From NCBI RefSeq assembly GCF_000008365.1, contig NC_006908.1, positions 510,001 to 542,000 on the forward strand: a DNA stretch of 32,000 nt, in the 5' to 3' direction. The notes beneath the pieces were generated by a model, which was given only the letters and a program-made list of their open reading frames with translations, was not told the origin of the DNA and searched no databases. Source of the stretch: Mycoplasma mobile 163K. GTDB lineage: Bacteria > Bacillota_I > Bacilli_A > Mycoplasmatales > Metamycoplasmataceae. A program made the translations under genes and the position numbers. Below are positions 9,259 through 23,528 of this stretch, in pieces (the first letter of the stretch is position 1; the number at the start of each line of letters is the position of its first letter).

Positions 9259-9456
9259 ATGGCAAGAAGAGATGATTTAACAAATAAAGGCCCAATGAGT
9301 GGTAACAAACGCTCACATGCTTTAAATGCAACTAAAAGAAAATTCAATTTAAATTTACAAAAAATTTTAGTAACTCTTGAAAATGGATCTAAAGTAAAAA
9401 TTAAAGTTAGTGCAAAAACTGCAAAAACACTTAAAAAACAAGGTTTTGTTGCTTAA
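9259..9456 (+). CDS. rpmB: 50S ribosomal protein L28
   Basis: [35 protein letters not shown].. is a typical L28. A strong SD (AGAGGAGG) lies 5 nt upstream of the ATG at 9259. The track start at 9229 is upstream of the SD and was rejected. Confidence 0.95.
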
Positions 9457-10317: not shown

Positions 10318-10419
10318 TAAATTATTTTAACATAATCCAGTAACTCAATTTTATTTTTTTCTAATAGAGCAATTTAAAGGTTAAAATTATTGTAAATAAT
10401 AAATTTAATGAGGTTAACT

Positions 10420-11769
10420 ATGAATAAAAAAATTATCAAACTTTTAGGAATTGGAACTTTAACTTTAGGTGCTGTAGGAACAATTGCAATTCCTGCAGGA
10501 ATTGTTTTAAATAGCAATTTGAACTCAAGAATAAGCATTGAACTAAATGAATTGAATTTGAACTTGGAAAATATTTTTTATAATGGAACAGACATTTTAA
10601 AAACAAATTCAATTTCTGATTATCTTTTAGAAACTAGCTATGAACTTAAAAAACCATTATTAACAAAAGACAATAAAAAAATTTCTTTGAGTGTTTCAAA
10701 AATTGAAACACCTGGAAATTTAGATAAAATAGAACTTACATATTTTTTAGAGATAAAAGATCAAAGTTTAAAAAGTGAAAACAAAAAATTATTAATAGAA
10801 AATTTTGCAGTTAAAGAAGCTTTCATAATTGATCCAAAATTGCAAATGGACAAAAGATCGAGAGTTTTAGAAATTGAAAATCTTTCGAGAACTCAAATTA
10901 CAAATCAAAATCAAAATTATTTATCTGAATACAAAACACCAATATTGACTGGAGGATATGGTGAAAATAGAAATATTTATGCTGGTTCAAAAATTAGAAC
11001 TCATCATCAATTTCATCTTGGCGAGGATGTTTTTTTAAATCAAGGTACTGAAGTTCTAGCTCCTTTTGATGGGGAAATTATTTCTTATTATTATTTACCA
11101 AATAATAGTATTGCAGAAGGTATAGGCACAAATCTTGTTATGAAAGTTTATAAAAAAGACTATACTTTAGGTGAAGAATCTTGGAATAATATTTTTGGAG
11201 AAAATAGTGAATTTTTTTACATTGCAATCATTCATTTAGATCATAGATTTATGAAAACTAAATTTGGAGAAAATAGAGTAAAAAGTATTTGAAACAGAAG
11301 TAGACATGTCATAGGAGTGCCGACTATTTCAGCAAAAACTCCACAAAAAGTTAAAAGAGGAGAAGTAATAGGTTTAGTTGGAAATATCGGAAACAATGGC
11401 GGATGAATACCACATTTACATGTAGAAATTCAAAAAAGTACAACACCAAATAATGGAATGCATAATGCAATTGATAGAAATGGTAATTTAATTAAAGATG
11501 CTGAAGGCATAATTAAAACTGAAAGGACTTCAGGCATTACTGATGCAAGAATTGAAAAATATATTCCAGAATTTATAAACGGTAAATGACAAGCAGATGT
11601 TTTTGATGCAAAAGCAACTGGTGTTCATATTGTCCCAATTAATCGAGATCCAAATAGAGATCCTATTTGAATTCTTTCTGAAAATAGATTTCAAGTTGTA
11701 GATCCAAGCAAAATTTTTAACTTTAGAAAATTTGCAAGCAAGAATATTCCTGTTAGAATTGGAGATTAA
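10420..11769 (+). CDS. membrane-anchored M23 (LytM/lysostaphin-type) metallopeptidase family protein
   Basis: The N-terminal helix is KLLGIGTLTLGAVGTIAIPAGIVL, with no lipobox Cys. The M23 motifs are HLGED (HxxxD) ..GTEVLAPFDGEII.. and GNNGGW(TGA)IPHLHVE (HxH). The frame continues across 4 TGA codons to TAA at 11767-11769 (449 aa). GAGG lies 5 nt upstream of the ATG at 10420. Confidence 0.8.
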
Positions 11770-11793: not shown

Positions 11794-12531
11794 CTAAAGT
11801 TTTATTAGACTTAAATTTGGAAAATCAAATGGGGCTGTATAATCACTAACAACAAGAATAATTTTGTTTTTAGGAGTAAAATCATAAAAAGCTGAACTAT
11901 TAAATTTTTCTTTTTCAGCTAAAACAACAACTAAATCTGAATTATTTGCAATGTATTTTTTTACAACTCCTTCATTAATGTCATTTGCAGTTAAACTACC
12001 TTTTGAATCAATTCCATTAACACCTAAAAAAGCAATTTGGAATTTAAGATTATCAATCATTGTAATTTCTGACGAAACAGTCGAAAGAGATGCAGGTTTT
12101 AAATGACCACCAATAATATTTACATTCTTAAATCCTAAATCAATTGCATGAATTGCATTAAAAATACTATTTGTATAAAGATTAATATCTTTTTCTAAAA
12201 AATCAAGTACATAATAACAACTTGATCCACTACTAATGAAAACATTTTTGTAATCTTTTGCTAAAGAAGCAGCTTTTTTTGCCAGTTGTAATTTTACTGG
12301 TTTATTTTTTTCTACTTCTTGAGAAGCAATTCTATTTGAATCAATAAATCCTATATATTTAATTTGGCCAAAATTTCTTTCAATTTTTTTCTTTTCTTCA
12401 AGTTTTATTAAATATCTTCTTACAGTTGAACTCTTTAAACCAAAAACAGTTTCTAATGTTTTTGGTTTAACAATTTTATTTTCTTTTATGTATTCTAATA
12501 ACTTATTTTCTATTATTAACAAAATTTCCAC
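11794..12531 (-). CDS. DeoR-family transcriptional regulator
   Basis: The N-terminal HTH reads ..KPKTLETVFGLKSSTVRRYLIKLEEKKKIERNFGQI, and the C-terminal part is a DeoR-type sugar-phosphate sensor domain (..FLGVNGIDSKGSLTANDINEGVVKK..). The start is uncertain. The track uses GTG at 12531, but AAGGTGGA is better placed for the TTG at 12522. Confidence 0.8.
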   Translation of the reverse strand: MEILLIIENKLLEYIKENKIVKPKTLETVFGLKSSTVRRYLIKLEEKKKIERNFGQIKYIGFIDSNRIASQEVEKNKPVKLQLAKKAASLAKDYKNVFISSGSSCYYVLDFLEKDINLYTNSIFNAIHAIDLGFKNVNIIGGHLKPASLSTVSSEITMIDNLKFQIAFLGVNGIDSKGSLTANDINEGVVKKYIANNSDLVVVLAEKEKFNSSAFYDFTPKNKIILVVSDYTAPFDFPNLSLIKL

Positions 12532-12573
12532 CTTTTACATGATTATTATAGTATTTAATCATTTAAAATGAAC

Positions 12574-12600
12574 AAAAAAATGCAATATTTGCATTTTTTT
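12574..12600 (-). terminator. terminator downstream of tpiA
   Basis: AAAAAAATGCAA TAT TTGCATTTTTTT: a perfect inverted repeat flanked by A7 and T7. Confidence 0.55.
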
Positions 12601-12625
12601 GCATAAATTTTGAATTTTTGGATAT

Positions 12626-13354
12626 TTATTTAATTAAATCAATAAAATCTTTTACATTCAAAGAAGCTCCACCAACAAGAGCACCATCAATATCTTTTTG
12701 ACTTAACAATTCTTTAATATTATTTGGTTTTACACTTCCGCCATATTGAATAATTGTTTTTTCATTTGTTAAACTTCTAATGTACTTACACATTTCTTGG
12801 GCATATTCAACTGTAGCTGTTTTTCCTGTACCAATTGCCCAAATTGGTTCATAAGCAATAATAATCTTTGAAAAATCACTTAAATTTTTTAGTGATTTTT
12901 CAATTTGATTTTTTATAACTTCTTTAGATTTGTTCGAATTGTATTGTAGTTCTGTTTCTCCAACACAAACAATTGGGACTAAATTATTTTTAATTGCTTG
13001 ATGCATTTTCATGTTTACTATTTCATCAGTTTCATGAAAAAACTCTCTTCTTTCACTATGACCTAAAACAACCATTTTTACCCCTAGATCTAAAAGCATT
13101 TCTGCTGAAATTTCTCCTGTAAAGGCTCCACTATTATTTTGGTGAAAATTTTGTGCAGCAATAACTAAATTTGCAAAATTTCCTTCTTTTTTAATCCCTA
13201 ATGATGTGAATGGTAATGCTAAACCTGCAACTAAATTTTTGTCCAATTTCAAGTTTAACTCACTTGTAATTTTATTAAACTCTTTTACAAAATTTTCTGC
13301 TTCTGTTTTAGTTTTGTTCATTTTTCAATTACCAATAATAATTTTTTTTCTCAT
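12626..13354 (-). CDS. tpiA: triosephosphate isomerase
   Basis: The track ORF extends across one TGA to the ATG at 13354. This gives MRKKIIIGNW(TGA)KMNKT.., where the invariant GNWKMN Trp is encoded by TGA. Further motifs are ..VVLGHSERR..VCVGE..AYEPIWAIGTGKTA..YGGSV.. Length is 242 aa. Confidence 0.96.
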
Positions 13355-13401
13355 GAAAATTCTCCTTATTTGCTTTTATTATATTTTTAATTAATCTATG
13401 C

Positions 13402-13430
13402 TTAAGATTATATTATCTTTTTGCTATAAT
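13402..13430 (+). promoter_or_regulatory. candidate sigma-70-type promoter of the glf operon (-35 TTAAGA, 17-nt spacer, extended -10 TGCTATAAT)
   Basis: TTAAGA lies at 13402-13407 and TGCTATAAT at 13422-13430. The -10 box ends 9 nt before the ATG at 13440 and no SD intervenes. Confidence 0.5.
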
Positions 13431-13439
13431 TTAATAATT

Positions 13440-14609
13440 ATGGATATATTAATTGCAGGTGCAGGTTTAAGTGGAGCTGTTTTAGCTAATAAACTTGCAA
13501 AAGAAAACAAAAAAGTTTTAATTATTGAAAAAAGAAATCACATTGGGGGAAATGTTTTTGATTTAAAAACAAAAGGAGTGTTAGTTCATAAATATGGACC
13601 ACATATTTTTCATACATCTAATAAACAAGTGTATGATTACATGAATCAATTTTGAAAACTTAACAATTTTCAAAATATTGTTGCAGCTAAAATTAAAGAT
13701 GAAATTGTCCCTATTCCTTTCAACTATCGTGGTTTAGATGTATTTTTCCCTGAAAAAAGTGAAGAAATAAAAGAAAAATTAAACAAAAAATATGGATTTG
13801 ATAAGAGAATTAAAATTTTAGATTTAATTAAAGAAAATGATTTAGAACTTCAAAAAGTTGCAGACTTTATATATAAAAATGTTTTTGAAAATTACACTGT
13901 AAAAATGTGAGGTTTAAATCCAAAAGAAATTGATAAAAAAGTAACCGAAAGAGTTCCTATCATTAGTTCATATAATGATAAATATTTCAATGATTTGTTT
14001 GAAGGTTTACCTGAAGAAGGTTATACAAATTCAATAAAAAAAATGTTAGATCATCCTAATATTACTGTTGTCCTAGAAACCAACATTAAAGATTTAATTA
14101 AATTTAAAATTTCTAGTGAAGGAAAAAAAGCGATTTTTTTCAAAGAAAAAGAGTTGAAAGTTCCTTTTGTTTTTACAGGAGCAATAGATGAATTGTTTGA
14201 TAATGTTGACGGAATTTTAGATTATCGTTCTTTAGATATTAAATTTACAAATATTAATCAAACAAAATTTCAATCAAATGCTGTTATTAATTATCCAGCA
14301 CATTTTGATATCACGAGAATTACAGAATATAAACATATGACATTGCAAAATGATGTTACAAACACTATAATCTCAAGAGAATACCCAGGAAAATATGATC
14401 CAAATAGTGAAAGATTTAATGTGCCTTTTTATCCTTTGCAAACCGAAGAAGCAAATAAAAAATATTTAAAATATTTTGAAAGAACAAAAGCTTATTCTAA
14501 TTTATTTTTAGTGGGTAGACTAGCAAAATATAAATATATTAACATGGATCAAGCAATTGAAGAAGCACTGGAAATATTTCCACAAATTTTAAGTTATGAA
14601 TCAAAATAA
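13440..14609 (+). CDS. glf: UDP-galactopyranose mutase
   Basis: MDILIAGAGLSGAVLANKLAKENKKVLIIEKRNHIGGNVFD..VHKYGPHIFHTSN shows the FAD-binding GxGxxG and the Glf-typical GPHIFHT motif. Further motifs are ..YTVKMW(TGA)G.. and ..FLVGRLAKYKYINMDQAIEEAL. Track ORFs 13398-13655 and 13995-14609 are one frame joined by 2 TGA codons (389 aa). Confidence 0.9.
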
Positions 14610-15672
14610 TCACAAAATTTTGTTTACTTTTGTAATCCCTTCATATAATGCCGAAAAACATTTAGATATTAGCTTGCCTTCAATTTTAAACCAAACATTA
14701 TATGAAGCAAATGTTATGAATGATTATGAAATAATTGTTGTTAATGACGGGTCTAAAGATAAAACTTCTGAAGTTGCAAAACAATACATTAGAAAATGAA
14801 ATGCAAAAGTAAGACCAGATTTTGTTCTGTTAATTGAAAAAGAAAATGGTCAATATGGTTCTGTTATCAATCAAGCATTAGAAGTTGCAAACGGAATTTA
14901 TTTCAAGGTTTTAGATGCTGACGATAGTTTTGATACTAAAATTCTAATTGACATCATTAACATGATAAGAGGACAAAAAAAATTAATTGATGTTTTACTT
15001 GTTGATTATTCAATGGAAAAAGTTGCAAACAACAAAAAAATAATCATCTCTCACAAAAAAAACTTTCAACCTTATAAAATTTTAAGTTTAAGAAATTTAA
15101 AATTTCCTTACACAATAATTACAATGCATTCTATTTTTTACAGAACAAATTTTTTAAAAGATTTAAATTATAAGCAAATAGAAGGAATTTATTATAGTGA
15201 TTCTCAGTATTCGTTAATTCCTTTTTCTCAAGCAGAAACAATGTATTATATGAATGATGTTTTATATCGCTATTACATTGGTAGAAGCGAACAAAGTATT
15301 AATTTAAAAAATATGGTAAAAAATAGAAATCATCAATTTCAAGTTATTCATAAAATTTTAGAAACTATTAATATTGAAAAAATTAATTCTGATAGTTTTA
15401 AAAAATATACTTGAAATTTCATTAGACAAATGATTTTATGACAAATTATGTTAATTTCCTTTGATAGACAAATAAAAAATAAACGTGTGTACTTGTTAAA
15501 TTTCATCAAAGATATAAAAAGAAGATATCCTTTAATTAGCAAGCATATATTAAAAGGATTTTCGATAAAAACAATACTTTTTGTAAGAGGACATTTTATT
15601 TCTACTTTTGTAAAAATAGGTGTAAAAATATATTCAAAATTTGGTTTAAATATTTTAGCAGAATGGGAGTAA
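14596..15672 (+). CDS. family-2 glycosyltransferase, paralog of the gene at 1496-2413
   Basis: [60 protein letters not shown] (DxD). Track ORFs 14596-14799, 14962-15414 and 15448-15672 are one frame joined by TGA codons (358 aa). The start overlaps the glf 3' end by 14 nt. Confidence 0.85.
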
Positions 15673-15673
15673 T

Positions 15674-16942
15674 ATGAAATTTATAGATGAAGTCGAATTA
15701 GAACTAAGAGGTGGAAAAGGTGGCGATGGAGCCATTAGTTTTAGGCGTGAAGCTCATGTTGCAAATGGAGGACCAGATGGTGGAGATGGTGGAAAAGGTG
15801 GAGACATCTACTTTAGACCTAATTATGGAATTAACACTCTTTTAGATTTACAATTTAGAAAAATTATCCGAGCTGAAGATGGTGAAAATGGTAAAAGAAA
15901 AAATCAATATGGAAAAGGTGCTGAAGACACTATTATTGAAGTTCCTTTTGGAACACTTGTTTACGAAAATGATAAATTAATTGAAGATATTGTTGAAGAA
16001 AGGGATTATTTAATTGTCAAAGGTGGGCAAGGTGGAAGAGGAAATCTTAAATTTAAAACTCCAAGAAATGGTGCTCCTTTCATGAATGAAAATGGATCTT
16101 TTGGAGAGAAAAAAAGATTAAGATTGCAATTACAAATTTTAGCTGATATTGGTCTTGTAGGTCTTCCTTCAGCAGGTAAAAGTACTCTTCTTTCAGTTTT
16201 AAGTAATGCCAAACCAAAAATTGGAGATTATGATTTTACAACTTTAAGTCCACAACTTGGATTGGTTAAATCAAGTGATTCTTCTTACACAATTGCTGAT
16301 TTACCTGGGCTGATCAAAGGCGCAAGCGAAGGTAAAGGATTAGGCATCCAATTTTTAAAACATATTGAGCGTTGTCGTGTTATTGCTCATATTATTGATT
16401 TTGGATCAAAAGATAAAAATCCAATAAATGCTTATGAGCAAATTTTAGAAGAATTAAGGCTTTATGATGAGACTTTATTAGAAAGAACTCAATTAATTAT
16501 TGCCAATAAAGAAGATTTAGAAGATTTTGAAACAAATTTAAATCTTTTTAGAAAAAAATTTCCAAAACTAGAAATTTTTCAAATTTCAGCTCTTACTACT
16601 AAAAATGTAAATGGTTTGAAAAACAAATTAGGTGAAATTCTATCAAAAGCTAAGAGCTATAGAAAAAAAATTGAAAAAACTGAGACTACAATTGTTTTTG
16701 AAAAAGATTTTGAAGTTGTTAAGAAAAGTGAAAATTCTTTTGAAGTTGTTGGTAAAAAAATTACTGATTTAGTTCAAAGAATTCCTTTTAATACATATGA
16801 AAATTTGATGAGATTAAATAACAAATTGAAAAATTTAGGAGTTTGAGAAGAACTGATTAAATATAATGTCAAAAATGGAGATTATGTAAAAATTGGCGAA
16901 TTTGAATTAGAATGAAATAATGAAATTTCTACTTATAAATAA
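15674..16942 (+). CDS. obg: GTPase Obg/CgtA
   Basis: [47 protein letters not shown] is the Obg fold, followed by [14 protein letters not shown] (G1) and [12 protein letters not shown]. The frame continues across 2 TGA codons to TAA at 16940-16942 (422 aa). The ATG lies 1 nt after the GT2 stop, with a GGGAG SD inside the GT2 3' end. Confidence 0.95.
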
Positions 16943-16972
16943 AAAAATAATGTTCATATGAACATTATTTTT
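16943..16972. terminator. bidirectional rho-independent terminator (obg on +, small Cys-rich ORF on -)
   Basis: Perfect palindrome AAAAATAATGTTCAT / ATGAACATTATTTTT centred at 16957/16958, with an A-run upstream and a T-run downstream. Confidence 0.65.
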
Positions 16973-16984
16973 AACTATTAAAAG

Positions 16985-17110
16985 TTATTTTTTTGAACAA
17001 GAACGATTACTTTCTTTTGATTTACAAGAACTTGATTCTTTTGGTTTGCAAACACAAACTTTGCATGTGCAGCCTTCTTTTCCACATTGTTTTAGATCTT
17101 TTTGTTCCAT
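16985..17110 (-). CDS. small cysteine-rich protein, 41 aa (metallothionein-like composition; function unknown)
   Basis: ATG at 17110 is preceded by GGGAG (spacer TAAAT), and the stop is TAA at 16985-16987. Translation: MEQKDLKQCGKEGCTCKVCVCKPKESSSCKSKESNRSCSKK, with 7 Cys including CxC motifs. It is too short for the ORF track. An extended -10 lies upstream and a terminator downstream. Confidence 0.5.
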   Translation of the reverse strand: MEQKDLKQCGKEGCTCKVCVCKPKESSSCKSKESNRSCSKK

Positions 17111-17168
17111 ATTTACTCCCTGATTTTTAAGCATTAAATATATTTTGTTTATATAATGCTTTGATTAT

Positions 17169-17177
17169 ATTATAACA
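17169..17177 (-). promoter_or_regulatory. extended -10 box TGTTATAAT (minus strand) upstream of the 41-aa Cys-rich ORF
   Basis: The reverse complement of 17169-17177 is TGTTATAAT. It lies about 59 nt upstream of the ATG at 17110. An imperfect hairpin (GCATTA..TAATGC, 17131-17159) sits in the putative 5' UTR. Confidence 0.4.
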
Positions 17178-17223
17178 CAAAAACTCTTTTGAAAAATTGT
17201 AAAAAATAATACTTTAGTATTAT

Positions 17224-17286
17224 TTAAAGTTTAATTGCTTTTTTTGGTTTACAAACACAATTTTTTTCTTTGCAATCTTTTTCCAT
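17224..17286 (-). CDS. second, shorter Cys-rich micro-ORF, 20 aa (paralog or truncated copy of 16985-17110)
   Basis: ATG at 17286 is preceded by GGGAG (spacer TTTTT), and the stop is TAA at 17224-17226. Translation: MEKDCKEKNCVCKPKKAIKL. It shares the CVCKPK core and the DNA core TTTTGGTTT(G/A)CAAACACAA with the 41-aa ORF. A TTGTTA-17 nt-TATAAA promoter-like pair lies upstream on the minus strand. Confidence 0.3.
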   Translation of the reverse strand: MEKDCKEKNCVCKPKKAIKL

Positions 17287-17377
17287 AAAAACTCCCATAC
17301 GACACTAAAATTAATTTATAAGTATCTATTTATATTTTAACAATAATAATGAAATTTTTAAAAATTAAAAAAATAGC

Positions 17378-18142
17378 TTAGGGAATAATTACTTCAATTG
17401 GTTCTGTTGCAATTTTGCCTGAGATTGTAAATTCAACATTAACACTTATAGAATAATTTCCTGAAGTTATTTCTCCAGAGATTTTTTTAATGTAATAAAT
17501 ATTACTATTCAAATCTTTTTCAATAATAAAATCACTATTCATTAATAGGGCATTATTTAATTTAATTTCAACAAACGAAAAAGGATTTGATACATTTAAT
17601 AAATTTAAAGTATTCAACAATAAAGGAGCTTTAATTGCTGCTAAAATTTTTGGATCTGGATCTTTTTCAATACTAACTGGGAGTTTTGAAATATTAAAAT
17701 TTAAAGTTTGTGTTCCAATTAAATTAGTTCCTCTTTTGATTTCTACTTCAATGAAATAATTTCCAGGTTTTGCAATAAAGTTTTCTTTTAATTTTAAAAA
17801 AGACTTTGAAAGAGAATTAGCTGTCGAAATAGTTGAAGGTTCAAGCTTAAATTCATTTATTACATCTGATCCTTTTGTTGCACTTGCAATAGTTGTTGAA
17901 TCAAATTTTAAAGTTTTTAAAGCATAACTAATATCACTTGTTCCTGTATTTTGATTTATTTCAACAAAGTTTGTTTGAATACTTTGAATTGGTCCATATA
18001 GGTGAGCAAAGCTTTTAATGCTAAAAGTATTAGGAATGGAAGTTGTTGTTCCACAAGAAATTACAGCAAAAGAAATGGTTGATACTGATATTGAACCTAT
18101 TATTCCTATTAATCCATATTTAAGTTTTTTATTTATAATCAT
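17378..18142 (-). CDS. surface lipoprotein, function unknown
   Basis: The signal peptide carries a lipobox: MIINKKLKYGLIGIIGSISVSTISFAVIS-C-GTTT. AGGAGA SD and an extended -10 TGATATAAT lie upstream. The Ser/Thr/Asn-rich mature part has two segments ending in similar GNYFIEVEI / GNYSISVNV strands. Confidence 0.8.
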   Translation of the reverse strand: MIINKKLKYGLIGIIGSISVSTISFAVISCGTTTSIPNTFSIKSFAHLYGPIQSIQTNFVEINQNTGTSDISYALKTLKFDSTTIASATKGSDVINEFKLEPSTISTANSLSKSFLKLKENFIAKPGNYFIEVEIKRGTNLIGTQTLNFNISKLPVSIEKDPDPKILAAIKAPLLLNTLNLLNVSNPFSFVEIKLNNALLMNSDFIIEKDLNSNIYYIKKISGEITSGNYSISVNVEFTISGKIATEPIEVIIP

Positions 18143-18229: not shown

Positions 18230-19153
18230 ATGCAAGAAAAAACTAGACTAGAAAAATATTTGGATAACAAATTAAAAAATGAAATTTGTTCAAGAGAAGA
18301 AGAAAGATTTTTAATAAAATTCAATGGCAAATTGCATTTTAAAACAATAATTAATTGAATTGCTCTTTCTTTTTGGATTATGAATCTATTAGTTTTTCTT
18401 TTTTTCAATTTTCAAAATAGAAATTTTTTGCAAAATTCAAATACTTTGATTAGTTTTATTAGTTTAATGTCTATTACCGGAATAACATTAGTTTTTAATT
18501 TATGATTTGCACTATTTTTTACAAATAAATTACTAAAAATTAAGTTAAAAATTCAAATGACTTTAGAAAAAGAGTTTAATTTAATAGAGTTTTTGAATTG
18601 GTATTTTGTTAACGATTTTTCTTTTGAAAATTACTCTTATACAAATGATAGAAATATTTCTAATTTAGTTAATAATGTTTATTTTTTAAATAAATTGATT
18701 AGAAATAGTTATGATATAAATTTAAAAATACAAGAAAAAGGCATAATTTTTTTAAATAACAATACAAATGTTAAAACAATTTTGAACTCTATTGAAGCAA
18801 ATAAATATTTGAAGGAAAATTTTTGAAAAAAAGCTTTGAAAAATATTTTTTATTTTTCTACTAAAAAGACAAATCTAAAATCATTAAAAGCAACTAATTT
18901 TGTTTTTACTTTTAAATCTCTTACTGAATTACAAAAAGAATCATTATTAAATAAAATAAAATTAATCAATACATCTAAAGAAGAAATTATTCACTTGGAA
19001 AATTTTGAAAATTTTACATATGTTGTTTTTGTAAATTTTTCTTATGATTTCAATAATTTTTCATATCAAAAATTAGATTTTACCAAAGGTGTTGAAAGTA
19101 CTTTAAAAAATGTTTTAAAAGAAATGATAAAAATTTTGAAAATTTTTAACTAA
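18230..19153 (+). CDS. hypothetical membrane protein (two N-terminal TM helices)
   Basis: ATG at 18230. The frame joins the unlisted 5' part with track ORFs 18557-18826 and 18836-19153 across 3 TGA codons (307 aa). The TM segments are WIALSFWIMNLLVFLFF and LISFISLMSITGITLVFNLWFALFF. The opposite-strand track ORF 18223-18408 is rejected as antisense noise. Confidence 0.65.
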
Positions 19154-22100
19154 AAGATTTAAAACCTAAAATACGTATATTCGTTTGATATTCTCTGCCA
19201 TTTATTTCCATAGTTTTAATTAAGATTTCTTTACCATTGTTTAATAGGCTTAAGTGAATTTTAAGTGTCTTAATATTTTGATCATTAATACCTAAGTCAA
19301 CTTTTCAAGCATTAATTCATTTTTGAGTATTTTCTCAAGTATGTTTTTCTAATTTTTCATTAATAATAACATTTGTATCATCTGATACATCATACAAAAT
19401 TGTAAAATCATTTGCAATTTTAGTTTTATTTACTAAATAATAACTATAATAAAAGCTCCCTCAATTAGTATTTCTACTTAAATATGTTGTATTTTTAATA
19501 TTTAATTCTTGAGATAATTCAAATTCCTTTTCAGGTAAAAAAACAATATAATTTTCTAAATTACCGTTTTTTAAGGAATTTATTAATACATCTATATAAG
19601 ATATTTGTCCAAAAAACTTTGCATATGCTCCTGATGGTTTTATCCCTTCTGACGAATCGTAGTAATATAAATATCATAAAATTTGATTTTTCTCAAAATT
19701 ACTATTTGAAGTAAATGAAAAAGAGTCACTTCCTACAATATGTTTGTTTACTAAATCAATTAAACCTGGAATTTTCGATAATCTTAACCCATCAATAATT
19801 GTTGCGCTTGCTGATAAGTTAGTAAAATTTCAAAATAGAGAGGCATTTGTAGAATATCTTCCAATTAATAATAAAGTTGTTGAAAACCTATATAAAGCTG
19901 AGTAATAAGGATTTTCTGTAATTGAACTTAGAGTGTTTTGCTTAGAAAAATCAAGATAAGAAGCATATAAACTTTTTGCAACTGAATTAACAATTGTTTT
20001 TAATTGTGATTGTAGATTGAATAAATTAGACAAATCAATTGCTGTTGAAGAACTAAAATTTTCCTTATTTTTTAAAGTCGTATAAAGAGGTGAATCAAGT
20101 CTAGATTTTTCAAATAATAAATTAATGAATTGACCTAAAGTATTTCCTTGGATCGTTCCTTTTTCAATACTTGTGCTTAATTTAAAAATTAAATTAATTC
20201 CATTTGATGCAAAATAACTTGAAACTTCTGATTTCAAAATTGAGATATCTATTTTACCTGCCAAAAAATTGAAAATATTATTTTTAAATAATTGAATTAA
20301 AGGTTCGGTTGCTACAAGAATTTCTTTGTTTTCAAATAAAGCTTTCATTAGTTGCTCAATCATTTGATTTAAAACTATTTCATCATTTTCATTAAGATTT
20401 TCCAGCACTAAAAATTCTTTCAACTTAGAACTCATCAAAAATAAATTAGAAGGTTTAAGAGCAATATCTTTTAAAAATGAAGTTAAAGAAATGAATAAAT
20501 TTTCATCATTTATAAACATATCAATAACATCTTTTAGAGCTTCTTCTAGTTTTGGATTATTTTTAATTAAATTAGTAACATCAAAAAGAAAAGAATTTAA
20601 ATTTGTAGAATCATTAAAAAAGTCTTGAAAACTACTAAAATCATTTCTTAACAAATCAGTAAGATTTTTTTTCAAAAATTTTATCAAAGGATTTTCTAAA
20701 GTAAAAATTTGACTTGAATTAAAAATTGCATCTAAAGATTCTTTTACAAAAATTTTCATTTTTTGATTTTGCACATCTGTTTTTTCATTAACTTTAATTG
20801 AACTAAAAATCAATGAAGTTAGAGAATTAAGAGTATTTTCAGTCACTATATAATTCTTTAAAAGTTTTCTTAAACTTGGATCTTCTATAAATAAATCAAT
20901 TATTTTTTCAAAACTTATATGTAAGTTTGAATTCTTTTCTAAAGCATTAGAAAAATAATTAAGTAAATAAACTAGATTTTCTTTTTGCAAAATAAAATCA
21001 GCAAAATTTTGAAAATCTCCGTTTGTTATATTTATGAAATTATTTTTTAAGTACTTTAAAATTGGATTTTCATTTTCAAAAAAAGAAGACTCTTCACTAA
21101 TTAAAGAATTTAGCATTTCTTTAATGAAATCTTTAAAAATATTTCTTTGTTCTTCGTTTAATTCAAGTTGGATTGAATCTTCTAAAAGTAAATTTAATTC
21201 AATTTCAATCAAACTTGAAAAGTAAATGTTATCAAAAACATTTTTAAAAATGCTTTTTATTGATTTTACTAATTTTGAATCGCTAAAATCAAAAACTTTG
21301 TTTAAAATATCAGAAAAAGAATTTGCCGCAATTAAAATTTTTGGATTTTCAAGCAATTTAGAAAATAAAATTTTAATCAATTCTTGAGAATCTGTATCAA
21401 AAATGACTTTTTCTAAAGGTTCAATAGCCAACCCTGTTAAACTTTTTAAATATCCAGTAATAAGTTCTTTACTAGCTTTTGAGCTATATAATAAGTCAAC
21501 AAAACCAGAAATGATATCGTTCAATAGATTTACTTCTTTTAGTAAATCAGTTTCAGAAATTGTTTTTATTGCAAGTCATAAAATTTCGCTTTTTGTAAAT
21601 GTTTTGATAAAAAAAGAACTTATAACGTCTTCTGTTAAAGGTGTATTGTTCTCATTAGAAAAAACTTGAAAAGAACTCAAAATTTCTACAAATAAATCAG
21701 ATTTAATTAATTTGCTTATAAAATCTTCAAAATTATTTTCATTGAAAATTAAAGAATTTAAATTTTTAAAAACTTCATCTAAAAGTTTTTCGTTGTCTGA
21801 ACCAAATAAATCATTAAGAACGCTTTTATTACTATTAAAAAAACTTTTGAAGAATTCTTTTAACCTAATTGAATTAGAATCTATAGAAATAAATTCACTA
21901 AAAAGTTCTTGTAAAGTTAAAATGCTTTGATTAGAATTTAAAATGTATTGATGATTTTGACTAATTAGTTTATTTTTTTCATCAAAAAGTTTAGTTTCAG
22001 AGTTTTCAAAAATAATTTTTAAAAATTCTTCTATATATTTTGAACTTTGATGTTGTTTATTAGTTTCAGGTTCTAATATTTCAAATTCAAATTCTTGAAA

Positions 22101-23528
22101 ATAAGAATCATAATTTCTTTTAAAAAATGTTTCATCTAACTTACCTAAAATATCTGATTCTGAAGACAATTTTAAAGAATCATAAGAATCAAAATTGTAT
22201 TTAGGTAATGCAAGTTTTAAAACTATTTCTTGAGCTATTTTTTGATAACCAAATGTACTTGAATGAATATCAAAAATATTTGCAGCTACTTTATTAGTAT
22301 TTTCTTTTCAAAATACTTCATCATAAACATCAAGAAAATTAATTCTTTTTTCAGTCTTATTTTGAGTCAGAGAATTAAAATTATTTACTGCTAGTTTTAT
22401 TGAATTATTTAAACTGGATAATAAAAAATCTGAACTAAATTCTTTTAGATTTAATTTTTCAAAAATAGAATCAATAAATGGAAGTAATTTTAATAAAGGG
22501 GCAGGATAAGAAATTACTTCAATGCTTGCATTTTTATTTGTTTTTCTTAATTCAGTAAATATTTTAATTAAATTGGTTTGAATCTCTTTTTGAGTTTTAT
22601 CTAAAAGTTTTTTTAAATCAGAAATGTTTAAATTTTTTGATGAAATTCCCAAAATAATTTTTTGAAGTTCATCAAAAAATGTGCTATCAAAAAAATCATT
22701 AGCACCTAAAGTAAGAGTTATCAAATTTGATTCTTCTAATTTGTTTATTAATTTTTTGTTCATTAATAATGGGTCGTTTTTTCAATTAGGAAAATTCTCG
22801 TTCAATCTATCTAATTGAGGATTGTTATTATTAGTTTTATCTCTTTTTTCATTATAAAAAAAATTTTCTTTTAAATTTTCATTATAAAATTCATCATATC
22901 TATTTGGCGATAATAAATATAATCAATTTTTAATTGTTGAACCTGATAAAGCAAAATTATCAAAAGAAGAAACAAAATCTTCATTGATGGATTGAATATA
23001 TTGAACTAAAAAAGAGCCATAACTTAGTCCTGATATCTCTTTTGTTTCTTGGTTAAACTTACCCGGCAAATCAAATGAATATTGAGCATTATAACCTGCT
23101 GATACACTATCGCCAATTGATAAAATCTTTAATGGACTTTGAGCATTAATCAGTTTTGAAGAATTATTCACATTAATTAATTTAGTTATTTCTTGATTAT
23201 CTATTTTAATTTTCAATTCAATATTAGTATCCAAAGACGAACGTGAAGGATTAGTAATGATTTCAAGTTCAATATCTTTGTCTTTAATAACTTGATTTGT
23301 TGAATTTTTAAAAGTAAAATATGATTTCAAAGTATGTGGAATCTCTTTATTAATATTTATAAAATCATTGTAAGTTAAAGTTTTTCCAATTTCGTTCAAT
23401 TCAATATCAAAAGTTTGATCAGAAGAAGTTTTAACATTTGAAGAACAAGCAATAACTACAGTAGGGATAATTCCTACTAAAGAAATTGCAGAAATGGTAG
23501 TGGATAAAAATTTTTTTTTCTTTTTCAT
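19146..23528 (-). CDS. very large surface lipoprotein with an N-terminal SGNH/GDSL hydrolase (lipase/esterase) domain and a long repeat-containing C-terminal region
   Basis: Track ORFs 22923-23528, 22308-22763, 21576-22169 and 19830-21524 and the tail to TAA at 19146-19148 are all in one frame. I checked the connecting gaps codon by codon and found only TGA between them (1460 aa). The lipobox reads MKKKKKFLSTTISAISLVGIIPTVVIA-C-SSN. The SGNH blocks are ILSIGDSVSAGYN (I), FALSGSTI (II), LTLGANDFF (III) and FDIHSSTFGYQKIAQ (V, DxxH). Confidence 0.85.
20060..21400 (-). repeat. intragenic degenerate tandem repeats (about 93-130 aa period) in the giant lipoprotein
   Basis: There are four recurrences of an ENP/EP-(I/L)(L/I)K-x-(L/F)K(N/K)N motif. 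The copies start at about nt 21350 (ENPKILIAANSF), 21071 (ENPILKYLKNNF..GDFQNFADF), 20696 (ENPLIKFLKKNL..NDFSSFQDF) and 20306 (EPLIQLFKNNIF). The intervening helical-looking sequence is similar between copies. Confidence 0.55.

Follow-up and report, generated by a model that had tools for sequence, protein, structure and literature searches.

A cysteine-rich orphan micro-ORF and its truncated tandem copy in the obg-lipoprotein gap of Mycoplasma mobile: a candidate metallothionein-like gene

Does the longest intergenic stretch in a compact piece of a mycoplasma genome harbor a functional gene and, if so, what might this gene encode? The question is raised by a gap in a 32,000-nucleotide segment of the Mycoplasma mobile 163K genome (NC_006908.1, positions 510,001 to 542,000; hereinafter the window, with all coordinates counted from its first nucleotide), of which only about 7% is intergenic and in which the guanine-plus-cytosine (GC) content is about 25%. 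The gap (16943-17377) lies between the 3' end of obg, on the plus strand, and the stop codon (17378) of a lipoprotein gene on the minus strand. It is 435 bp long, as had been claimed in the initial annotation of this locus, given that TGA is read as tryptophan and that obg accordingly extends to 16942. Two minus-strand micro-ORFs (open reading frames) are found in the gap at the positions originally assigned to them, ORF1 at 17110..16985 (41 amino acids) and ORF2 at 17286..17224 (20 amino acids). The observation that started this work, namely two minus-strand micro-ORFs with expression signals and a shared segment, is confirmed, and the gene anatomy, duplication, composition and lineage restriction of the locus are shown by the comparisons described below. 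Our preferred reading, which we put forward tentatively and with somewhat less than even confidence, is that ORF1 is a real, young, lineage-restricted gene for a metallothionein-like micro-protein.

The gap had been considered to be unannotated, which is not the case. ORF1 is 100% identical to the RefSeq entry WP_269076314.1 ("hypothetical protein [[Mycoplasma] mobile]"), that is, it is independently called by the NCBI annotation pipeline. ORF2 is absent from the protein collection searched.

Several independent signals lift the locus above chance, and they give ORF1 (16985..17110, minus strand; MEQKDLKQCGKEGCTCKVCVCKPKESSSCKSKESNRSCSKK) the look of a functioning gene in its own right. The ribosome-binding site GGGAG (17116..17120, minus strand) is located 5 nt before the ATG, and the same spacing, as reported originally, is seen in both micro-ORFs (17120-17116 for ORF1 and 17296-17292 for ORF2). 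The combination GGGAG-N4-8-ATG occurs at three sites on both strands of the window, which are the obg start and the starts of the two micro-ORFs, and the ribosome-binding sites of obg (GGGAGTAATATG) and ORF1 (GGGAGTAAATATG) are nearly identical. Further upstream, the predicted ORF1 promoter (17164..17177, minus strand) includes an extended -10 box, TGTTATAAT (17177-17169), found as previously described, which overlaps a second TATAAT (17169-17164); a sequence match to a possible -35 hexamer, TTCAAA, is present at 17193-17188 on the same strand. In the promoter scan, this site is a 10/12 match. The window contains five copies of the extended -10 box TGNTATAAT, of which three are found 32-59 nt ahead of a gene start on the same strand, namely for the lipoprotein gene, the Asp23-family gene and ORF1. 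Together with the listing of intergenic ORFs given below, the GGGAG sites and the extended -10 box make the translation and transcription signals originally proposed for the micro-ORFs believable.

Both ends of the predicted ORF1 transcript are marked by hairpins. At the 5' end, an inverted repeat, AAGCATTATATA / TATTTAATGCTT (17129..17161, minus strand; 92% complementary), is present in the minimum-energy as well as the centroid fold and might act as a stabilizing 5' stem-loop or as a repressor operator. At the 3' end, a perfect palindrome of 15+15 nt (16943..16972; 100% complementary, with T-runs on both sides) starts 12 nt past the ORF1 stop codon and folds as a 12-bp stem, again in both the minimum-energy and the centroid folds. 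This palindrome is a bidirectional terminator common to obg (plus strand) and ORF1 (minus strand), and was passed over by our general terminator scan because that scan required at least three G-C pairs. It is ancestral, since the closest relative of M. mobile has a corresponding hairpin downstream of obg.

The reading frame itself also bears marks of a coding sequence. Of the ORFs located wholly in intergenic DNA of the window, only three have a ribosome-binding core, an ATG and a length of at least 20 codons, namely rpmB, ORF1 and ORF2. The first of these (9259-9456, plus strand; 65 amino acids) encodes ribosomal protein L28 (Pfam PF00830, 67.5 bits), is preceded by the ribosome-binding site GAGGAGG, is located in the 399 bp that separate the Asp23-family gene from a gene for a membrane protein, and serves as a positive control. 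The GC content of ORF1 is 30%, versus 16% in those stretches of the gap that lie outside the ORFs. Of the eight TGY triplets in ORF1, seven fall in its reading frame (P=0.003), which is also the frame that scores best of the three in codon usage.

The second micro-ORF, ORF2 (17224..17286, minus strand; MEKDCKEKNCVCKPKKAIKL, with 3 Cys), most plausibly represents a tandem duplicate of the ORF1 cassette in truncated form. The two cassettes share a DNA core of 19 nt, 18 of them identical (17039-17057 versus 17242-17260), with limits about one base off those originally claimed, and this core sits in a 48-nt repeat with 75% identity and a spacing of 203 nt. A second repeat, of 19 nt, spans the ribosome-binding site and start codon of both cassettes and thus includes the ORF2 ribosome-binding site GGGAG (17292..17296, minus strand), 5 nt before its ATG. 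The claim of a local duplication is supported by these repeats as well as by the gapped local alignment of the two cassettes, with a score of 44 compared to 24.7 +/- 3.7 for dinucleotide shuffles, 2 of 500 of which reach 44. A pattern encoding CVCKPK is found only at these two sites in the window, where 0.18 would be expected, and the sole difference between the copies within this 18-nt core is synonymous (TGC/TGT). The alignment continues for about 30 nt past KPK, but only with frame-breaking indels, so that ORF2 appears to be a decaying copy. Hence the description of the pair as paralogous micro-ORFs holds insofar as they are related by duplication, but ORF2 is not an equal paralogue.

With regard to the expression of ORF2, a possible promoter of the form TTGTTA-17 nt-TATAAA was found as claimed (17343-17315; 17315..17343 on the minus strand), as a weak match by sequence only. 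Alternatively, ORF2 could be expressed as part of the lipoprotein transcript, given that no hairpin lies between the two. An A/U-only hairpin, AAUAAUACU-AAAG-AGUAUUAUU, followed by a U-run (17198..17225, minus strand; 100% complementary, present in the minimum-energy and centroid folds), begins at the ORF2 stop codon (stem and loop at 17225-17204, then the U-run) and is predicted to act on ORF2 as a weak terminator. Reading down from the lipoprotein gene, this is the first hairpin encountered, and it probably terminates the lipoprotein transcript as well.

The comparison with the closest available relative shows that most of the gap is confined to one lineage. The nearest Obg homologue (75% identity) is encoded on the 6,957-bp Logan contig SRR26596586_1023, which derives from an uncultured close relative of M. 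mobile, with a DNA identity of 77% over 5.2 kb. The gene order on this contig is the same as in M. mobile, i.e., DeoR-type regulator, TpiA, Glf, GT2, Obg, an opposite-strand lipoprotein and a hypothetical protein. The DNA is 77% identical to the window over 11839-16972; the similarity breaks off precisely where the terminator hairpin ends and is picked up again at 18117. In the relative, the lipoprotein stop codon overlaps the obg terminator, so that the gap measures about 10 nt, compared to 435 in M. mobile. Thus, the 405-bp segment between the shared terminator and the lipoprotein stop (16973..17377), which holds both cassettes, is restricted to the M. mobile lineage; no part of the relative's contig shows significant similarity to it. 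The lipoprotein and the next hypothetical protein of the relative are only 36% and 40% identical, respectively, to their M. mobile counterparts, indicating that both evolve much faster than the adjoining housekeeping genes. Because M. zalophi and Mycoplasma sp. 480, which served as outgroups (with Obg proteins about 57% identical), share no gene order around obg with M. mobile, gain of the segment in M. mobile and loss in the sister organism are indistinguishable. The gap segment shows no significant similarity to the remainder of the window, and the Rfam 15 covariance models gave no match inside 16943-17377 even at E up to 10. An origin of the gap from the obg 3' end was considered and rejected, since the 13-nt match between 16916-16928 and 17345-17357 is at chance level in AT-rich DNA.

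What, then, might ORF1 encode? The product would be a peptide of 4,544 Da with an isoelectric point (pI) of 9.1, containing 7 Cys (at positions 9, 14, 16, 19, 21, 29 and 38), 10 Lys and 7 Ser, with 11 basic residues altogether, and no Phe, Trp, Tyr or His. Cysteine accounts for 7 of the 41 residues (17%), compared to 22 of 9,292 residues (0.24%) in 26 neighboring genes. At the center is a CxCxxCxC core formed by C14xC16, C16xxC19 and C19xC21. With a mass below 10 kDa, cysteines arranged in CxC and CxxC motifs, and no aromatic residues, ORF1 has the compositional properties by which metallothioneins are operationally recognized. Like the vertebrate metallothioneins (PF00131) and the bacterial SmtA/BmtA, it is small, rich in Lys and Ser, and devoid of aromatics, and human MT2A contains the same CxCxxCxC spacing, as CKCKECKC. 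ORF1 has, on the other hand, no detectable sequence relationship to any of these proteins, and its cysteine content of 17% is to be compared with about 30% in vertebrate metallothioneins.

There is also a local likeness to MymT, the Cu(I)-binding metallothionein of Mycobacterium tuberculosis, which has 53 amino acids and is encoded by a stand-alone small gene. The likeness falls near the N-terminal Cys cluster, on the motif C-x2-EGC-x-C-[KR]-V; with 8 of 17 positions identical, it gives a pairwise E=4e-4 and P=0.004 versus shuffles in a post hoc comparison that is dominated by cysteines. The two proteins differ in that MymT possesses His ligands and later CHC and CTC pairs not found in ORF1, and their hosts belong to different phyla.

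A number of results weigh against the proposed metallothionein-like gene. The cysteine content of ORF1 is at the low end of the usual metallothionein range. No Pfam family matches ORF1 at E up to 10, the metallothionein models including PF00131 among them, although in the control human MT2A matches PF00131 at 81 bits. The same is true of NCBIfam at E up to 10, with the MymT model NF052418.1 (at least 80 bits) included; the control, MymT itself, matches that model at 99.6 bits. In a direct BLASTP comparison with human MT2A, ORF1 obtains E=1.4, a score no better than that of shuffles. The MymT likeness was chosen post hoc and consists mostly of cysteines, so that it can be taken as a lead but not as an indication of family membership. 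Thus, the resemblance to metallothioneins noted in the initial annotation stands with respect to composition (7 Cys in 41 residues, no aromatics) but finds no counterpart among the metallothionein family models, and because no family model matches, the word "metallothionein" denotes here a possible mode of action and not a family assignment.

The search for relatives gave equally unfavorable results. A word-indexed search of 5.8 billion proteins returned ORF1 itself alone, and phmmer against 1.84 billion representative proteins returned ORF1 itself along with one chance match, to a eukaryote-like repeat protein. An alignment-based motif scan of 185,579 species genomes matched 53 stretches, none of which is a relative; the genome scans never returned the M. 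mobile locus itself, possibly due to masking or filtering, so that their negatives are not absolute. No relative was detected in motif scans of the Joint Genome Institute (JGI) metagenomes and viral contigs, or in searches of phage DNA and plasmid proteins. The KxCVCKPK DNA pattern was found at at least 120 loci; among the matches listed there is no mollicute, and all are out-of-frame chance occurrences save one. The exception, in an Anaeromyxobacteraceae genome, was rejected as an unrelated secreted Cys-repeat protein. Conservation of the peptides, which had been proposed as a check on the micro-ORFs, accordingly finds no support in database searches, given that no relative turned up among proteins, genomes, metagenomes, viruses, phages or plasmids; to the depth of these searches, ORF1 appears to be an orphan with no detectable relative. 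Neither does the orthologous gap provide such support, because the gene order is retained in the closest relative but the corresponding gap of about 10 nt contains no micro-ORFs and the syntenic locus yields no tblastn match. The micro-ORFs are missing from the sister locus, so that purifying selection on them finds no support.

The codon usage of ORF1 gives an ambiguous answer. Its score of 6.8 is above the 95th percentile of off-frame sequence (-5.8) but below the 5th percentile (13.9) of real gene segments (mean 24.9), partly because Cys codons are very rare in the real genes of this region. With respect to expression, no M. mobile transcriptome turned up in literature searches; in the paper on the trans-activating CRISPR RNA (tracrRNA), the M. 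mobile RNA is predicted in silico only. A 1,009-bp Logan contig, SRR4046664_6161, from a public sequencing run, is identical to 16867-17875, but the full obg gene is not assembled in run SRR4046664, implying that M. mobile is represented there at fragmentary coverage only. All tryptic peptides of ORF1 have 7 residues or fewer, so standard shotgun proteomics is blind to this product, and its absence from a proteome would be uninformative.

Much of this evidence could also be accommodated if the 405-bp segment carried its promoter-like and ribosome-binding-like signals by chance and harbored a young proto-gene or non-functional ORFs, perhaps transcribed and possibly even translated, but with a product under no selected function and ORF2 already decaying. 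We consider this explanation rather unlikely but by no means negligible. It fits the orphan status of ORF1 in every search, the absence of the micro-ORFs from the closest relative with the same gene order, the intermediate codon score and the truncation of ORF2 by frame-breaking indels, and the region has no excess of promoter-like sites over shuffles (7 observed versus 8.7 expected). Like orphan or de novo small ORFs of other bacteria, ORF1 is short, confined to one species and located in an intergenic segment that is absent from the sister organism. It differs from them in the unusually complete expression signals and in a strongly non-random, function-suggestive composition. Specifically, a complete set of strong signals coincides on ORF1, its Cys codons are locked to the ORF frame, the GC content is raised over it, the only difference between the copies in the core is synonymous, and this is the largest gap of the window in an otherwise compact genome. 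If the ORFs are non-functional after all, the locus is simply an orphan ORF called by the NCBI pipeline. A different possibility, which we regard as improbable, is that ORF1 is real but functions as a zinc knuckle or mini zinc ribbon, with one structural zinc site in a basic protein binding RNA, DNA or the ribosome, and not as a metal buffer. The high pI, the 11 basic residues and the C16-x2-C19 pair are compatible with such a role, as is the moderately confident compact model with short beta elements that AlphaFold2 yields without an alignment (predicted local distance difference test score, pLDDT, 71.8). The CCHC knuckle of the human immunodeficiency virus 1 (HIV-1) nucleocapsid protein NCp7 shares with ORF1 a CGKEG-x-...-C string in a basic peptide context, but this weak similarity, to CGKEG[H/C]...C (E about 1-3; P=0.026 versus shuffles), is non-significant, with E above 1. 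Moreover, the first Cys ligand is missing from ORF1, where Leu6 occupies the place of the required cysteine so that the pattern CX2CX4HX4C is not reproduced; there is no Pfam zf-CCHC match; Foldseek finds no PDB match for the ORF1 model; and seven cysteines exceed the needs of a single site.

The locus could, furthermore, act at the RNA level, either with ORF2 and its hairpin acting as a leader whose Cys codons govern read-through into ORF1, or with the ORF1 transcript of about 200 nt functioning as a regulatory small RNA in which the ORFs are incidental; we deem this highly improbable. The ORF2 hairpin does start at the ORF2 stop codon, so that a terminating ribosome would cover it, and the predicted ORF1 transcript is more stably folded than shuffles (z=-2.4). 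However, the latter z-score is owed to the terminal hairpins, no antiterminator pairing is predicted, the ORF2 region is no more stably folded than shuffles (z=-0.2), no Rfam family matches, ORF1 has a strong predicted promoter of its own downstream of the ORF2 hairpin, and the frame-locked Cys codons point to coding. A role of ORF2 as a leader-peptide attenuator, in particular, finds no support: only the terminator hairpin folds, with no alternative structure, and ORF1 has its own promoter. Finally, the size and Cys count of ORF1 bring to mind the precursor of a modified or secreted Cys-rich peptide, of the SCIFF, lanthipeptide or bacteriocin type; SCIFF precursors contain six Cys in about 45 residues. 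This we find barely credible. ORF1 lacks a signal or leader region, NCBIfam, in which a SCIFF model is presumably included, gives no match, and the genes around the micro-ORFs (those for Glf, the GT2 glycosyltransferase, Obg, the lipoprotein, a hypothetical membrane protein, TrkH and TrkA) include no radical-SAM enzyme, dehydratase, cyclase, protease or exporter. The initial annotation is therefore correct in that no modification or export genes are adjacent, which argues against a modified or secreted peptide.

Returning to ORF1 as a metallothionein-like gene, we infer its transcription, translation and metal binding from the features described above, and its function from composition only. 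Under this model, ORF1 would be transcribed independently in the M. mobile lineage, and its product would be a basic, Lys/Ser/Cys-rich peptide of 4.5 kDa. The CxCxxCxC core (C14-C21), together with the three other cysteines, could bind the soft metal ions Cu(I), Zn(II) and Cd(II) via thiolates, such that the peptide would buffer metals or thiols in the manner of a metallothionein, in an organism whose other proteins almost lack cysteine. ORF2 would be a truncated copy of the tandem cassette, whose hairpin now probably ends the lipoprotein transcript. A more far-reaching proposal, which appears doubtful to us, is that ORF1 is the first mollicute metallothionein-type protein, of recent de novo origin or fast diverged, which emerged within intergenic DNA missing from the sister organism and serves as a Cu/Zn/Cd thiolate buffer in this fish-gill mycoplasma, with ORF2 as the record of duplication and decay.

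The claim that no metallothionein has been described in mycoplasmas agrees with our literature searches, which returned none. Provided that the peptide is produced and binds metal, it would represent a new metallothionein family without a sequence relative and, as far as these searches show, the first metallothionein in the wall-less, near-minimal Mollicutes, adding a metal or redox defense to the known repertoire of these cysteine-poor organisms. The locus would, in addition, provide a clear-cut example of a gene gained recently in a streamlined genome, with the sister locus representing the "before" or the "after" state and the truncated tandem copy ORF2 testifying to the turnover of the cassette.

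Several observations on other sequences were made along the way. In the Anaeromyxobacteraceae metagenome-assembled genome contig DASTGH010000046.1 (minus strand, ~1072-1095), a signal-peptide-like N-terminus is accompanied by repeats such as KGCKGKCAGG..DC.C.KGECKC; this repeat protein, which surfaced through the chance KxCVCKPK match, is probably an extracytoplasmic metal-binding protein and is unrelated to ORF1. Within obg, on the antisense strand (16377-16447, minus strand), there is a weak Rfam match to the potC RNA (27.7 bits versus a gathering threshold of 44, E=0.01), which is most likely due to chance. On the other side of the gap, the 3' ends of the hypothetical gene at 18230-19153 (plus strand) and of the 1,460-aa lipoprotein gene at 19146-23528 (minus strand) overlap by 8 nt (19146-19153), leaving no room for a terminator between these convergent genes.

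Upstream of obg, the DeoR-type gene (~11794-12540) is intact. An extended -10 box, TGCTATAAT, is located at 13422-13430 (plus strand), just inside the longest ORF of glf (UDP-galactopyranose mutase), which starts at 13398; this suggests that the true glf start is the ATG at 13440 (MDILIAGAG..., with the flavin adenine dinucleotide (FAD)-binding motif) rather than 13398. Finally, the gene at 10408-11769 (plus strand) encodes a 453-aa protein with a lipoprotein-like N-terminus and a Peptidase_M23 domain (PF01551, E=4e-10); enzymes of the M23 family usually cut peptidoglycan cross-links, which are absent in a wall-less mycoplasma.

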